64,000 bases of DNA from a virus. A program made the position numbers and the translations under genes. Below, in pieces: positions 18,301 through 61,252 of this stretch (positions are counted from its first letter, which is position 1; each line of letters starts with the position of its first letter). Location: IMG/VR virus record IMGVR_UViG_3300021960_000048, positions 18,792 to 82,791 of that record; one strand, written 5' to 3'. The notes below the pieces were generated by a model. It was not told the DNA's origin. It ran no database searches and worked only from the letters and a program-made list of their open reading frames with translations.

Positions 18301-20910
18301 ATCTGTCCAAGTTGCAGAATGGTCGGCACTACGTAACAACGTAGGACTCATAGATAATCTAGTTCCAAGTCGTTCATGACCCGGCCAAGGACGGTTTCTA
18401 CCATACGTCCAAGTTCCACTTGTAGTAAGAGCAGTTCCCACTGGCTTAATGTAATCCCACGCTCGGCGACCAGTGTTAGTATCAGTATAAGACCAGAATG
18501 GTGTGCTTACACCTCGGAACAACCACTTGTCATGTCCATACTCTCCATTCATTCTTGGAAAGCCACTATCGGCTCTCAATCTATCAGTATAGTCGCCACT
18601 TACAGTAATGTATCTATCCGACAAATCATACCCCAATGGAGACGGAATACGTAAACCACCATCACCTTCATTGTATCTATTCGGAGCAGACAATATCTTA
18701 CCTTCAACATCTTTAGTAACTATACCAATCGAACGTAATACAACTTTTCCATCTCTATGTTTTCCATCAACCGAAGGTAAACTTCTCTCACCGATTGTTG
18801 GTCGACCGGGGTAAGTTGCATCTACGGAACTCCTTGCCGGAACATTGCTGTCCATTTGTGAAACACCAACTTGGAAACCAGTTCCGATTTTTGAATGTGA
18901 AGGACTTCCTTCGGCGTTGGCATTTCTTTTCTCAATTCCAAAGATGTTCCCTGCTGTTGCATCATCATCTGCATCGGGAGTGTGAAAGTATTTCTGTTCT
19001 GAACCACCAACCATACCTCTTCTTAGGTAAGCATCACCTCTATTGAATAATATAATTTCATTCAAAGCCGTTCCTGTTTCAAACAATGCAGTCTTGAATG
19101 TAAAGGCAACGAAAGAACGGGTTGTACCACCATAACCATTTGCTACTGTTTGACCGGACTTATCATACATACCTGCCGGAGCATCGGCGGCTTGCCATGC
19201 CGCGTCTGAATTACCCGTCTCTATTGTAGCATCAGCGTTAGTTATCCACCATCCATTATAGGAACGCCCTACATCAGTAGAGTCGATTGAATCATCATAA
19301 GTTGTACCATCTTGGTTGCCTCTCAACCCCCATCTATCCGGCCATAGTTTATTCTCTGCGCTTGGGAATGTTGCATCGTTAGTAGTTCCGAGATTGCCTG
19401 TTAAGCCTTCTAAATAGATAGGTGTCCCCGCAGGTAGAAGAGTCTGTTCAGTGGTGTCCATGTGGTCGCAAAAGACGGTGATTGTTGACCCCGATTTCTT
19501 TATTCCTAATATCGCCATTCTATGAGGCGGTGGAGCAATAACAGTGTTCAATACACCATTTGTATTTGCATTAGTCGTATGCCTAGAAGTCATCTGTTCG
19601 TTAGTCCAGTTGTTGCTTTGAGCGGAAGGGGTAATTGGTCCTTGAGTGAAGTCAAAGAATGGAAATATTTGAGCCGAGCAGTCATCGGTTTCAAGATAAC
19701 CACCCGAAAAATAACTACCATCATCTTCACTGCCATAACCTTGTAGACCATCCCATACTGAATACAGTGTGCTTGTTACTGTTCCACCAATGTGTCTTGT
19801 TTGGTCGTAACTGTATGGAACAATAGCACCATCATTCAATGAGTAAACACCATCTTTTAGGAAGCAAGCCAAAGCCATCTTCATCCTATATTTTGGTGAA
19901 GGCACTGCTGATGAATCAAACGATTGGAAATAATTACTGTTCGGTAAGTTAGCATGAAGGTTCGCATGAAGGAGACCCGTTAAGTGGTCTCCAGATTTTC
20001 CGAATACTTTGTATTTGATAGTTGAAGAATCAAGCCCAGTTGGGTCAGAGTCATATCTAGTAATTCCATTAGAGAAATATGATGCAGATGTTCCCCCATT
20101 TCTTATACCACTTGATACTTTTGTTGAAGCACCGGATATATCTTTGTGAAACTGATTAACGTCAAGCAACATTGGGTGGAAAACAGTTGCTCTGTAAGGA
20201 GAAGTTGCAGGTATGTCATCATGGCCGAATGTAGACTCACTGTTGGTATCTACCATCCACACAATACGAGGGTCAGCCCCATGTGCGGGGTTCGCAGTTG
20301 TCAACAATACATCTGCCGCTTCTCCAGTTGGTCTACCTGTAACGCCATGTGGTAAGAATGAAGGCTTACTAGCATTAAGTTGACCGACATGACGATAGTC
20401 GTCAATAAACTCAGCAAGTTCTTGAACCGTCATAAAAACTGGGTACGGACCATTATCTCGAACATGTTCTGAAAATCCTACATTGTTCTCACCCTGCATT
20501 GGACTTGTTCTCTTCTCAGCAGTATAGTCAGTGTCATAGAGACCGAATGAATCAGTAGGCGCAGATGTTGGAGCAATAAGAAAGACTGATGTCTTAGTAG
20601 CATCAGCATGAGTAAGCGTACAGATTGGCTTGAAGCCACCAGAGCCAGAGATAGTTAGAGTTGGTTCAGTGGTTACATCTGTTCCATCATCATTGATTGC
20701 TTCGACTCGAATACCGGGTGTATTGGCAACGTCATCTACGAGGCCGCTTAGAGACGCGGTTGTAGGTCCGAACTTTGAGTGAAATATTTGAGGGTCAACG
20801 GTCAAACCACCGTTGGCTTTTACGAAAGCGGGCCACATTGGTTGTAGTTCAGCAAGACCGTTCTTAATACGAGAGAAGGGCTTGTCAATATTTTGTGTTG
20901 AACGTGCCAT
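15307..20910 (-). CDS. Large tail protein (1867 aa) with PKD/Ig-like domains and possible Dit-like C-terminus
   Basis: PKD motifs VEYGDGT and FTFGDGS..HTYAEAGEFLATLVVTD; immediately downstream of the tape measure gene. Confidence 0.7.
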   Translation of the reverse strand: MARSTQNIDKPFSRIKNGLAELQPMWPAFVKANGGLTVDPQIFHSKFGPTTASLSGLVDDVANTPGIRVEAINDDGTDVTTEPTLTISGSGGFKPICTLTHADATKTSVFLIAPTSAPTDSFGLYDTDYTAEKRTSPMQGENNVGFSEHVRDNGPYPVFMTVQELAEFIDDYRHVGQLNASKPSFLPHGVTGRPTGEAADVLLTTANPAHGADPRIVWMVDTNSESTFGHDDIPATSPYRATVFHPMLLDVNQFHKDISGASTKVSSGIRNGGTSASYFSNGITRYDSDPTGLDSSTIKYKVFGKSGDHLTGLLHANLHANLPNSNYFQSFDSSAVPSPKYRMKMALACFLKDGVYSLNDGAIVPYSYDQTRHIGGTVTSTLYSVWDGLQGYGSEDDGSYFSGGYLETDDCSAQIFPFFDFTQGPITPSAQSNNWTNEQMTSRHTTNANTNGVLNTVIAPPPHRMAILGIKKSGSTITVFCDHMDTTEQTLLPAGTPIYLEGLTGNLGTTNDATFPSAENKLWPDRWGLRGNQDGTTYDDSIDSTDVGRSYNGWWITNADATIETGNSDAAWQAADAPAGMYDKSGQTVANGYGGTTRSFVAFTFKTALFETGTALNEIILFNRGDAYLRRGMVGGSEQKYFHTPDADDDATAGNIFGIEKRNANAEGSPSHSKIGTGFQVGVSQMDSNVPARSSVDATYPGRPTIGERSLPSVDGKHRDGKVVLRSIGIVTKDVEGKILSAPNRYNEGDGGLRIPSPLGYDLSDRYITVSGDYTDRLRADSGFPRMNGEYGHDKWLFRGVSTPFWSYTDTNTGRRAWDYIKPVGTALTTSGTWTYGRNRPWPGHERLGTRLSMSPTLLRSADHSATWTDSVSGDVVPARSATTKYGLSEMAASPIFLDAEITAFFPARPNRMIMVEFDSNEEHPVFGRHSMVMDTPAQNYGMGLSPVWDGNTSGISQLGATKSVSGTALTVPTDSAKRFYTRLTAAQHNGENANGWRGGYFDSDDVDVTGGTVKTVPGLHNMKRLFWNHTPNATGNKSASVGGFDILNKDARVKADNAFPTASIYNRCGVWMTGGLPHLTTSGTWTGFVDVDGDNTFNLPGTGGFGRLSNGFGTSNYFTFSEGTNTLRTVFNSKGMTFLWNGEVVGTDPSCRTPVWAMSIKSCDIATFPMRTPIAHPSSTTDHWANHWAEGDPAVMNTGTRDYNRDDRVAFTEHQGGRYTLYLDEMEYSSSGTILDLVASASFDTDSTLNAAMIARLTDLTATEAHFVAFDSTDLSATPIAIGRQVVTYTASPANITINTGTATYIYGSSGVFINGASYYVLVTLQGEPITPDSMPITSLNGFTQSSYAIPEYPARTLLHVPTDPTEFLDSNGEITRLTNPTLQKSNQDLQIDSMTLRQLPTGGMLPFTVDSIKQQPSTTVARYTKLNIYATNINKTKGMDIRVTLLEPPTVVTIDQEASTTIDGFIDRQLDYTGGIGTLDLTGLPSSVVASGFVVRFNFYIPSVSETLLHPIDWSAIPCITSWDVEYDEKPTVDVAVVSNSYDGSTATSVGSSDTSFTTKVGHVITFRVTGVTTDANRLISEFKVEYGDGTDSGWVKVNTPATSITQDISYVYTTTSGTREVKAYVKDDVGNESLVSDPTITYTIVNAEPIAILRAIPTMVRAGQAIRLDASSSYTINSTATLSTYAFTFGDGSSAVSGATSYNDHTYAEAGEFLATLVVTDSNGTSSATAKVVVKVLPATLIIPLTLNTKPSSFSRRRVATFTQTPVLDAVYPEVTDRGQRVDEFEMQGVFLKETENTDIEFMEELLQSGALVEFEYEAVNYSGQATNKTFVGRMTSFNYQRQGGNVGQTPYTAVFVREAGLGA

Positions 20911-28717: not shown

Positions 28718-29107
28718 TCACGGTTCAAGACCATATTCAATTATCTGAATTGAGCCATTTGTAAATGCTTCACGCAGAGTTATAGTATTACAAACTGTAT
28801 TTTCATAATATGAGTTGACTGGTAAAGTGAGGTAAAGAAGTCGAGAACCTAGAACTTCTGCTTTGTAAGGAGTTCCGTTGTCTATTGTTCCGTTGATTGT
28901 GAAAATGTAAGATGTTCCCGTTTCATCAAACTTGGCTTCTTTCTTTTCAATCACACCACCTACCCAATAACATTCATCATCCACCCAAGGGAAATAAGTG
29001 GTTGGGTATCTAGCAGGTGAGGTTACTACTACTGCTATCGAGAATGACCACATGACCATCATGACGACCATTAGAACGGCCTTAACAGTGGTAGCCCTAT
29101 CACTCAC
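28718..29107 (-). CDS. Membrane-anchored or secreted hypothetical protein
   Basis: N-terminal hydrophobic helix AVLMVVMMVMWSFSIAVVV. Confidence 0.6.
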   Translation of the reverse strand: MSDRATTVKAVLMVVMMVMWSFSIAVVVTSPARYPTTYFPWVDDECYWVGGVIEKKEAKFDETGTSYIFTINGTIDNGTPYKAEVLGSRLLYLTLPVNSYYENTVCNTITLREAFTNGSIQIIEYGLEP

Positions 29108-54780: not shown

Positions 54781-54949
54781 GCGGCTCTCCGAGTGAGACA
54801 TCGAATATATATGTTTCGATGCCTATAACAAGCCAAATTAATTATGATGGTATATTTAGTAATTTTGGTGGTGTTTTTTCGATAGATGCCTATAGTTGGC
54901 GTATATAGTTTTCTAAAACCTATAGTGTAATCAACCTATGTGAGCAAAA

Positions 54950-55190
54950 AGCCCCTCGAATTAATTTGAATTAAATTGGGGTAAAACCGTTGTACTACGG
55001 GGCTACTTAGATAAAAAATAAATTAATTCGACTGGTGAGAGACCCCCTTGCACACACACACACCTTACCCCCCTTGTGTGTGTGTCCCCCCATAACCTTC
55101 CAAATTAATTTAATTAATTTTATTTTTTAATTTATTAATAAGTATATAGTATAATAATAGTATAAAGAAAGAGGGTAGGGGTGGGGGGTG
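54950..55190. other. Candidate replication origin: inverted repeats, CA/TG hairpin and very AT-rich tract
   Basis: TCGAATTAATTT (54956-54967)/AAATTAATTCGA (55020-55031); (AC)n-CCTTACCCCCCT-(TG)n hairpin 55052-55085; nearly pure A/T 55102-55170; G-tracts after. Confidence 0.5.
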
Positions 55191-55686
55191 TGGACGCACT
55201 GCCAAAACGTCAACTTACATCACGTTCACTAGATGGGCGGGACGGTTCTTACGTCTCCAATCCTTACGCAACTATCGCTACGGCCTCAGAGTTGGCTACT
55301 ACCATTCCTCTTGTGAACACCCCCCACGTATAGGGGTGGAATGTGGGTTGCGACATGAGCCTAATTAATGTCTTAATTCTCTCACGCTTCTGGACCAGTC
55401 TCCCATAACACATTCTCTTATCCGATTTGTGGCCTCAGAGATGTGATGAGCGTCGTAGGGGGATTTCTCCCTCAACCATAGAACTCTCCCTCAACATTGG
55501 CGGGCTTTACATGACTGTTTCCCGCAGTTCCGGTCAACTTCTTTCCGTAAGGAGTTCCGCTGTCCATTCCTGTCTGTCAAATCCCTGTTGAGACGCACGA
55601 CCCGCATCCGGCATCGTGGTTCTTCACATTCTTCCCGCTAACCCACTCGTTTTACCGAGTGTTAGCCGCCGAGTTCGACTCGACTG
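55190..55686 (-). ncRNA. Candidate large structured non-coding RNA of about 500 nt
   Basis: No ORF of 60 aa or more; TTTAAGTA box at 55708-55715 with early-promoter context; many nested stems and a long-range UCCUUACG/CGUAAGGA pairing. Confidence 0.65.
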
Positions 55687-55865
55687 TTTGATGGGACAGG
55701 GTATCGGTACTTAAAGGTATCTATAGTTGACTTTGTATATAGCCTCATAAGAAAAATTGACTCATAGCGAGCGAAACCAGTATGCGGTCGAATCGAAGGA
55801 TGAAAATGGCTGTCATCAATCATAGGGGTGGGGTACTGGGGGTCTCAGTTTCTCATATTTCTATA

Positions 55866-55974: not shown

Positions 55975-56385
55975 TCAGCGGCGGCCTTTTTTGTATGCTC
56001 TTGTATTTCTTGCTTTGGCTGCCTCAGTTCCTCGCGCCCATTTTACTTTTGAAAGTCCGCCTTGATGAGATGCACCGATTCTCTGAACCCATGCTTTATC
56101 CATTGGTTGAGTTGACCTTCTTAGGTATGCGGTCTTGACTTGACCTTGAACTATGATTAGAACTACCATGTCGCCGTTGGATTCGTAACCAGTGTTGTCG
56201 GTCATTCGGCGTTGGCTTAGGTCTAGTGCTACAACTGCCACGGCTCTATGACCGGCGTTGTATGCGTTATCCCATTCGCGTTGGCTAACTGTGATTGCCT
56301 GTTTTAACTCGCCTTCAACCAATCTGATTGAGGCTCTATCTAGTGCGTGTTTTGTGCCGGTTAGTGTCGGTGCTTGGGTTGTCAT
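55975..56385 (-). CDS. Cassette gene 8, possible BECR/RelE-fold RNase-like protein (start MTTQAP)
   Basis: TKHALDRASIR and VKTAYLR resemble HAxxRxxxR/VxT motifs; perfect ATATAAC-ATGTAG-GTTATAT at 56410-56429. Confidence 0.5.
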   Translation of the reverse strand: MTTQAPTLTGTKHALDRASIRLVEGELKQAITVSQREWDNAYNAGHRAVAVVALDLSQRRMTDNTGYESNGDMVVLIIVQGQVKTAYLRRSTQPMDKAWVQRIGASHQGGLSKVKWARGTEAAKARNTRAYKKGRR

Positions 56386-56537
56386 CAGTCTACGGGAGAA
56401 GATGCCCCTATATAACATGTAGGTTATATGAACCTCAACAAAGGCCCTCTTTCCACCATACCGGGAAGCCCTCATTTAAGTCGCATTCTTTGAGCATTTC
56501 AAACTCTTCGGACATGATTAAAACTTGAACTTTCATT

Positions 56538-60754: not shown

Positions 60755-61252
60755 TGATGTTACCTCAGACTATCCGAGAGGCCACCGGGTATTAAAGATA
60801 TCTATATGTTAATCTGTATATAATCAGTAATTAATATAACCGAAAGGTTATAAACCCGCATCTCATCTCGTAAACGGGGTTGGATGCGAGGACTGAGGAA
60901 CCGGGCCAGTGGCCGGGTCTTGAAGCCGCCCGCCCACCCCCTATGAGGTAAGGCTTAGGTATTAAACTTTTCTATAGTTTGATTATCATATACTTCAGAT
61001 GTATATAACCGAAAGGTTATAAACAATTAACCCATATCACTAACCCCGACTTCAAAAATCGCGCGGAAATGTGAGACCTATATAGGCGAAAGACTATAAG
61101 CAATTAACCCATATCACTAACCCCGTCTATACATCGCGACCCTACAAAGTGAGAATGCTACAGGCAAACATTCATATAGTATGACTTCCTCTGAGGATTA
61201 TGGGCCGAGGTGCGTAGCGTATGCTTTTTTGAAAATGTGGAAAAATTGTGGA

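Follow-up and report, generated by a model that had tools for sequence, protein, structure and literature searches.

Large ornate RNAs are known from bacteria and their phages, where ROOL, GOLLD, and OLE have been studied by cryo-electron microscopy (PMC12286853). The manA RNA motif (RF01745) is about 190 nucleotides (nt) long and usually lies in 5' untranslated regions (PMC2864571), and manA RNA cages have been described (bioRxiv 10.64898/2026.07.01.735769). ROOL, GOLLD, and manA, which are ornate RNAs of phages, are believed to act in trans as scaffold or decoy particles. Here, we analyze a 64,000-nt stretch of viral DNA, referred to below as the window, and describe an apparent structured RNA of about 520 nt encoded on its minus strand. 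The window is positions 18792 to 82791 of the 82.8-kb IMG/VR record IMGVR_UViG_3300021960_000048, which is rated 100% complete.

Structured noncoding RNAs (ncRNAs) longer than about 400 nt are few, and each new class has opened new RNA biology, such as ribozymes, ribonucleoprotein cores, and RNA-only cages. In the literature that we searched, no such large structured RNA has been described for a virus of archaea, and the magrovirus literature that we examined does not mention ncRNAs. Sequence comparison indicates that the element is a genuine gene for a structured ncRNA, that it represents a new family, and that it is optional and narrowly distributed; the virus that carries it is probably archaeal. 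The fold of this candidate is clearly supported by comparison, and the structure of the cassette is defined. Sister genomes with and without the RNA provide a natural comparison, and the candidate is therefore directly testable.

An ORF-free gap with a promoter-like module

The RNA lies in a 1.17-kb gap on the minus strand, between the stop codon of a gene of 166 amino acids (aa) at 55975 and the start codon of a 316-aa gene at 54801. There is no credible open reading frame (ORF) in this gap. No ORF crosses 55175 to 55705, where at most 56 consecutive codons of 177 are free of the standard stops. Reading TGA, TAG, or TAA as sense opened no frame in the window or in two relatives that carry the RNA, L001 (3300025759_000107) and L002 (3300006793_000493). 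A preliminary description of the window, made from the letters alone, had called the region ORF-free, and this claim is borne out under any single stop reassignment. It had also placed a promoter before the RNA, and its coordinates are exact, with TTTAAGTA at 55715 to 55708 and TATA tetramers at 55725 to 55722 and 55741 to 55738, 16 bp apart. The gene has three parts.

55708 to 55742, minus strand: early-type promoter module with three phased TATA-like boxes, CTATATAC (55742 to 55735), TATAGA (55725 to 55720), and TTTAAGTA (55715 to 55708)
55181 to 55699, minus strand: structured RNA body of about 520 nt, with a consensus fold, no ORF, and no Rfam family
55161 to 55180, minus strand: C/U-rich tail CCCUACCCUCUUUCUUUAUA, read directly, a putative archaeal-type oligo-U termination zone

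The promoter-like module has the form TATAT-N11-TATAGA-N4-TTTAAGTA. A module of the same type (TATAT-N11-TATAGA-N4-TTTAATA-like) precedes the early genes at about 60976, 60806, 60207, and 58482, and the module of the RNA is kept in both L001 and L002. Judging from its boxes, the module at 55708 to 55742 probably acts as a promoter, and the RNA would be transcribed early, like the genes that share this module type. With TATAGA as the TATA box, the RNA is predicted to start at about 55699 to 55697, immediately ahead of helix 1; with TTTAAGTA as the box, the start would be at about 55689. These estimates use the distance of 26 to 30 nt between TATA box and ATG at leaderless genes. At the other end, the RNA would stop at a U-rich tract, probably within the C/U-rich tail at 55161 to 55180. 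Pyrimidine or U tracts are also found at the tail position in L001 and L002.

The early genes at 60806, 60207, and 58482 have a common leader after the TATA module, GCCTCTCGG-N-AGGTCTGAGGTAAC-like. This leader can fold, hiding a GAGG just before the ATG. The sequence UCUGAGG occurs twice in the RNA.

X20 was the only RNA library with words of the locus. It holds three short contigs, one of them at 55308 to 55411 and one at 54800 to 54919. These contigs may stem from DNA carry-over into the library.

A three-domain consensus fold with compensatory changes

We derived a consensus fold of the window, L001, and L002 with RNAalifold. It contains 146 pairs in 21 helices and is organized in three serial domains, the second of which carries an expansion.

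55633 to 55696, minus strand: domain 1, in which UCCC/GGGA closes a three-way junction that has hairpins H2 (55684 to 55668) and H3 (55666 to 55637)
55339 to 55631, minus strand: domain 2, a multibranched core closed by GAAUGUG/CACAUUC (55631 to 55624 with 55346 to 55339), which holds H5, H6 to H8, H9, H10, H11 and H12, and H13 and H14
55181 to 55327, minus strand: domain 3, in which the G-run GUGGGGGGUGU (55327 to 55317) pairs with the C-run ACACCCCCCAC (55191 to 55181), with H16 and H17 and the variable arm H18-H19 (55299 to 55253)
55522 to 55574, minus strand: expansion of 53 nt that extends the tip of helix H8 in the window and strain variants and is absent from L001 and L002

In this fold, 95.8% of the pair cells are paired, versus 33 to 47% when the partners are slid. 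Both sides have changed in 15 pairs, versus 6.0 ± 1.8 in shuffles, none of 500 of which reached 15, and versus 0 to 2 in the slid controls; the shuffle control ignores the relatedness of the three sequences. The double changes are clustered, with four pairs in H3, three in H17, and two in H14. In H3, ACUCG/CGAGU is replaced by ACAUG/CAUGU or ACUUG/CAAGU, and in H14, AAUUAA/UUAAUU is replaced by AAUGUA/UACAUU. H15 has one compensatory change and one wobble change. A fourth variant of H17, GUGUAGGU/ACCUCGC, found in a Logan contig from run X9, still pairs. The RNA has diverged by 15 to 21%, like the neighboring coding genes, yet the pairing is kept. There are 39 G·U cells versus 4 A·C cells, which points to the minus strand as the folded strand, but prediction of the fold on that strand biases this count.

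Domain 2 is the most conserved part of the RNA. Its segment 55392 to 55489 is almost invariant, and the strain variants are almost unchanged at 55415 to 55600. Insertions and deletions sit at helix tips. The 53-nt expansion of H8 folds alone as an extension hairpin, and L001 has a larger H5 loop and a replaced H18-H19 arm.

In the strain variants, 96 nt of the domain 3 arm (55211 to 55308) are swapped for 76 unrelated letters, and the rest of the RNA is nearly unchanged. The arm-swapped variants come from X12 and X14, which are independent seawater data sets, and from a short contig of the RNA library X20. Elsewhere in the window, at 28865 to 28882 on the minus strand, there is a sense-strand copy of part of the 53-nt expansion (GACAGCGGAACUCCUUAC; 17 of 18 nt, E = 0.13). 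This copy may be due to chance, or it may hint at the origin of the expansion.

Most of the helices in the preliminary description are present in the consensus fold. GUCGAG/CUCGGC, CACGAU/GUCGUG, CUCAACA/UGUUGAG, GGGA-GAAA-UCCC, and CACAU-CUCU/AGAG-AUGUG were all recovered, as were GCUAAC-ACUCG/CGAGU-GUUAGC with four compensatory pairs and CGUGAG-AAUUAA/UUAAUU-CUCAUG with two. GUUCAC/GUGAAC, offered as a possible long-range pair, is also there and extends helix 16. The proposed AGAAC/GUUCU is undecidable because it is invariant across the sequences. Two other helices, CGCAAC/GUUGCG enclosing CAUUCC/GGAAUG, are contradicted because their segments pair elsewhere with covariation support. GGAAUG pairs with ACCGUCC instead, with three compensatory pairs, and CACAUUC pairs with GAAUGUG to close domain 2. 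The other proposed long-range pair, UCCUUACG/CGUAAGGA, is not conserved, because it joins two lineage-specific pieces: UCCUUACG lies in the 53-nt insert (55574 to 55522) that L001 and L002 lack, and CGUAAGGA lies in the arm that is replaced in L001 and in the strain variants. The element CUCUGAGGCC does occur twice, at 55440 to 55431 and 55291 to 55282. However, the kissing-loop idea attached to it is based on the 4-nt palindrome GGCC within CUCUGAGGCC, and the second copy is dispensable, being absent from L001 and the strain variants.

No match to described RNA families

We searched the whole window with the covariance models of Rfam 15, a set that includes ROOL, GOLLD, OLE, HEARO, RNase P, SRP, tmRNA, 6S, group I and II introns, and small ribozymes. 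There were no matches at the gathering score. At E ≤ 10, searches of 1.4 kb, of the 541-nt RNA alone, and of L001 and L002 gave only subthreshold chance matches, for example, ROSE_3 on one hairpin (18.6 bits, versus a threshold of 43). The manA model (RF01745; 192 positions) matched nothing at E ≤ 10, whether the 82.8-kb genome or only the RNA was searched. ARAGORN found no tRNA or tmRNA gene in the window. No group I or II intron model matched, and the RNA lies in a noncoding region between a gene that ends at a terminator and a gene with its own promoter. In a relative without the RNA, the joined flanks are also noncoding, unlike the exons around an intron. Therefore, the RNA is not a detectable member of any described family. 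It has the general features of a stand-alone structured ncRNA, namely, no ORF, conservation, helices with compensatory changes, and strand-specific G·U pairs.

These results support the core proposal of the preliminary description, which was a new large viral ncRNA of no known class preceded by a promoter. That account had named an Rfam scan and a search for homologs among its checks. The scan gave no match at the gathering score and none beyond chance at E ≤ 10, and the homologs carry compensatory substitutions.

An optional cassette in a narrow sub-clade

L001 and L002 carry the RNA region at the same place as the window. Their PolB is 96% identical, and their RNA is 79 to 85% identical. In the complete relative G001 (L087/L195; 81% identity in PolB and 65% in the clamp loader), both flanks are present and directly adjoin each other, and the whole 80.7-kb G001 record lacks the RNA. 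All three RNA domains are also absent from 24 loci of relatives with 52 to 60% PolB identity. Therefore, the RNA is an optional cassette. It is an accessory unit of promoter, RNA, and U-rich tail that was inserted in, or lost from, a conserved noncoding region.

We collected loci of relatives by way of the downstream gene, the clamp loader, and PolB, and searched the resulting 1.7 Mb (approximately) with an nhmmer profile of the full RNA and with three covariance models (R1, R2, and R3). Apart from the window itself, L001 and L002 were the sole matches. When IMG/VR was scanned for exact occurrences of four segments of the RNA and of one flank pattern, the same contigs came back together with a chance 18-mer in L082, and the pattern scan of species genomes returned nothing. 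The comparison covers these loci; relatives P0003 to P0005, at 75 to 77%, are known as proteins, and their loci lie outside it. Within the genome, the RNA is single copy. It is confined to a very narrow sub-clade of marine or estuarine tailed viruses; neither this confinement nor its optional nature was recognized in the preliminary description.

A direct repeat of CTATATAC brackets the cassette. One copy lies inside the promoter module (55742 to 55735), and the other lies beyond the tail.

55142 to 55149, minus strand: right-hand copy of CTATATAC; L087 has a single TACTATATACT at the junction that lacks the RNA

Flanking elements and neighboring genes

Two conserved noncoding elements flank the cassette, and both are kept in relatives without the RNA.

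55745 to 55850, minus strand: element X, a conserved 105-nt noncoding block with the C-rich head CCCCACCCCUA, kept in the relative without the RNA (L087:4540-4649)
54946 to 55170, minus strand: AT-rich tract, (CA)n/(TG)n hairpin flanked by G-runs (about 55091 to 55044), and AATTAATT repeats, together with a T6 tract and a GCCCC...GGGGC-U5 hairpin

The consensus structure of element X is weak (-3.7 kcal/mol), which suggests that it is conserved as sequence. A promoter-like module at about 55865 precedes element X. The head of the element, CCCC-ACCCC-UA, resembles the 3' end of the RNA, and its core, CGCATACTG, is invariant. On the other side, the AT-rich tract and the CA/TG hairpin are kept in L087/L195 (PolB 81%; L087:4660-4900) and in L196/L197 (PolB 58%; L196:3479-3653). 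The region at 54946 to 55170 is a candidate origin or another cis element.

The leaderless ATG of the downstream gene (54801 to 53851, minus strand) is preceded, at a distance of 26 nt, by a TATA box that belongs to this gene. The approximately 380 nt between the RNA and this gene contain T-tracts and a GC hairpin followed by U5. The separate TATA box and the intervening terminators indicate that the RNA is independent of its neighbors. PHROGs labels the product a DNA-binding protein, and pyrimidine-dimer glycosylases of the T4 endonuclease V type (PF03013 in relatives) are related to its N-terminal half. We rejected the label "SSB" for this protein because its relatives carry PF03013 (Pyr_excise), which makes it DenV-like. 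The DenV-like domain is widespread, and the C-terminal half is found only in a handful of full-length relatives (P0002 to P0007).

The upstream 166-aa gene (55975 to 56475, minus strand) had been described as RNase-like, and a nearby 65-aa ORF as Lsm-like. Neither label is supported by profile searches, as the 166-aa protein has no Pfam, PHROG, or PDB match, and the 65-aa ORF has no Pfam match. For the 166-aa protein, a protein-atlas language-model search gave subthreshold leads only (RelE/DUF4258 clusters). A 55% homolog of this gene is present in G001, which lacks the RNA (C1:68803-69201, equal to L087 4028 to 4426), and it is inverted with respect to the surrounding genes, an orientation in keeping with the inverted repeats that the preliminary description had placed on either side of this early block. 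In G002, the homolog is 94% identical and has an in-frame TAG.

The virus and its probable host

Nearly all long ORFs and every annotated gene in the window are on the minus strand, including those for a tape-measure protein, terminase, portal, PolB, and an ArdC-like protein. The clamp loader is RFC-like and has a Rep_fac_C domain. Among isolates, the best full-length matches of PolB are haloarchaeal tailed viruses, at 24 to 25% identity. A TATA-like box (TATAGG, TTATATAC, or TTATATTGG) lies 26 to 30 nt before the ATG of many genes, and there is no room for a leader. This is an archaeal promoter geometry and not a bacterial one. The locus was found in metagenome runs of marine, estuary, and seawater samples, which belong to 14 studies. 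The archaeal-type promoters, the RFC-like clamp loader, the relation of PolB to haloarchaeal tailed viruses, and the marine or estuarine source together suggest an archaeal host. Therefore, we infer that this is probably a magrovirus-like tailed virus of marine archaea.

Middle and late genes on the minus strand (25032, 9802, 5205, 40279, and others) have CATATAAC-N8-10-GTTATATACC or TTATATTGGTGGGG about 26 to 30 nt before the ATG. As read from these boxes, the arrangement is of the archaeal type, and the mRNAs would be leaderless or nearly so. We had considered a bacterial, T7-like promoter reading of ACTATAG. It was dropped because the boxes lie 26 to 30 nt before the ATGs and no single-subunit RNA polymerase was found among the proteins scanned.

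We found no similar DNA in the phage-record collection, and a clamp-loader search of species genomes returned only distant cellular archaeal RFC genes. GC skew is monotonic across the genome and uninformative on the origin because all genes are on one strand.

Possible roles of the RNA

In our judgment, the locus is probably a stand-alone gene for a structured ncRNA of a previously undescribed family, approximately 520 nt long, at about 55699 to 55181 on the minus strand. How such an RNA would work is a more tentative matter. By analogy with ROOL, GOLLD, and manA, which it would be like in kind (PMC12286853; bioRxiv 10.64898/2026.07.01.735769), we suggest that it acts in trans early in infection, in the form of a compact folded RNA or an RNA-protein particle that serves as a scaffold or as a decoy for a host factor, and this suggestion could well be right. 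In this scenario, the RNA would neither pair as an antisense RNA nor serve as a leader for a neighboring gene. The invariant core at 55392 to 55489 would be the working part, and the 53-nt expansion and the replaceable domain 3 arm would be peripheral. A search for antisense pairing with the viral genome found no complementarity beyond chance, with exact matches of at most 12 nt. Because the RNA has neither a link to a neighboring gene nor an antisense target, a folded RNA acting in trans is the most economical reading.

We consider a bolder version of this idea rather unlikely. The RNA would then be the first of a class of large ornate RNAs restricted to marine archaeal viruses. Early in infection, it would form a particle, of RNA only or of RNA and protein, that assembles itself or serves as a decoy for a host factor of defense or gene expression, and it would be exchanged as a cassette of promoter plus RNA at a conserved noncoding slot.

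Several points weigh against a stand-alone RNA gene acting in trans. The folding energy of the single sequence is ordinary (z = -1.9; opposite strand, -2.1), so that the case depends on comparing sequences. That comparison has only three full sequences, at 79 to 85% identity and from one narrow clade. Thus, the covariation represents few independent events, to which no significance of the R-scape type can be assigned. Many core helices never vary. Transcription, the RNA ends, and function are predicted, and the distribution is very narrow. For the particle in particular, we found no partner protein, oligomerization signal, or target. Lastly, the position beside an origin-like tract could mean a role in cis.

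This position would fit a transcript linked to the origin. At ColE1, whose origin transcript is RNA II, and at the transcript-primed origins of T4 and T7, which combine a promoter with an unwinding element, an RNA primes or activates replication. Here, the RNA would prime or activate replication at the AT-rich unwinding tract that begins 10 to 15 nt past its 3' end, and an R-loop would form in which the G-run of domain 3 (55327 to 55317) holds the C-run strand of the DNA. In favor of this reading, the RNA ends at a 70-bp AT-rich tract that is followed by the CA/TG hairpin and AATTAATT repeats, beside repair and replication genes, and the AT-rich and hairpin tract is conserved down to 58% PolB identity. 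The length of about 520 nt and the elaborate fold resemble RNA II, and the pairing of G-run and C-run could equally be RNA-DNA. However, G001 and L196/L197 keep the origin-like tract without the RNA. The tract therefore does not need the RNA, which weakens the proposal. In addition, the tract is only a candidate origin, on which GC skew is uninformative, and the RNA has a C-rich run at its 3' end, whereas R-loops are usually stabilized by G-rich RNA. We regard a role at an origin as quite unlikely.

The cassette could also be a selfish passenger, that is, a mobile or recombining unit that spreads by way of TATA-like repeats and whose fold serves its own maintenance, as in a ribozyme or a retroelement-like RNA. 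Its presence or absence is polymorphic with intact flanks, 8-bp direct repeats of CTATATAC bracket the RNA, and the slot lies in a region where a neighboring gene is inverted in a relative. However, the repeats are ordinary promoter boxes, and homologous recombination is therefore sufficient to explain deletion or insertion. There are no terminal inverted repeats, and there is no transposase, reverse transcriptase, or endonuclease gene nearby. The genome has no second copy, and none was seen in the approximately 1.7 Mb of related loci or in another IMG/VR context. No small-ribozyme or intron family was detected. A selfish element is a very unlikely explanation.

A cis-acting RNA is a highly improbable one. 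It would be a leader, processing platform, or attenuation region in a transcript that reads through from the early genes to the downstream repair and replication genes. All genes are on the same strand, and the promoter-like module at about 55865 could drive transcription through element X and the RNA. However, the TATA box of the downstream gene lies 26 nt before its leaderless ATG, the approximately 380 nt in between contain T-tracts and the GC hairpin with U5, and relatives express the same genes without the RNA.

Finally, the view that there is no functional RNA, and that a DNA-level element (protein-binding sites or a single-stranded DNA fold) or recent ancestry accounts for the conservation and chance for the covariation, can point to the three sequences, the shuffle control uncorrected for relatedness, and the deduced expression, but it is hardly credible given 15 double changes, several of them within single helices (four in H3, three in H17, and two in H14), versus 0 to 2 in slid controls, the strong bias to G·U over A·C, the indels at helix tips, and pairing that is kept at the 15 to 21% divergence of the coding neighbors.

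Comparison with known systems

Like manA, the RNA described here is a structured RNA of a marine virus. It differs from manA in its length of about 520 nt and in not lying upstream of any gene that it could regulate.

The resemblance to ColE1 RNA II and to the T4 and T7 origins lies in a promoter that drives a structured RNA, about 500 nt long, whose end meets an AT-rich tract next to replication genes, and in the interaction of a G-run with a C-run. There is no homology with these systems, and here the AT-rich tract, only a candidate origin, persists in relatives without the RNA.

The preliminary description had compared the RNA with ROOL and GOLLD. This likeness holds for size and setting and does not extend beyond them. 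No Rfam model of ROOL, GOLLD, or OLE matches in sequence or structure, even at E ≤ 10. In addition, the host here is probably archaeal, there are no tRNA genes nearby, and the RNA belongs to one narrow clade. What the systems share is a stand-alone, ORF-free, multidomain RNA of several hundred nucleotides in a tailed virus, with an invariant core, with variable peripheral arms, and with GNRA-type loops (here, the H14 loop, GACA or GGCA).

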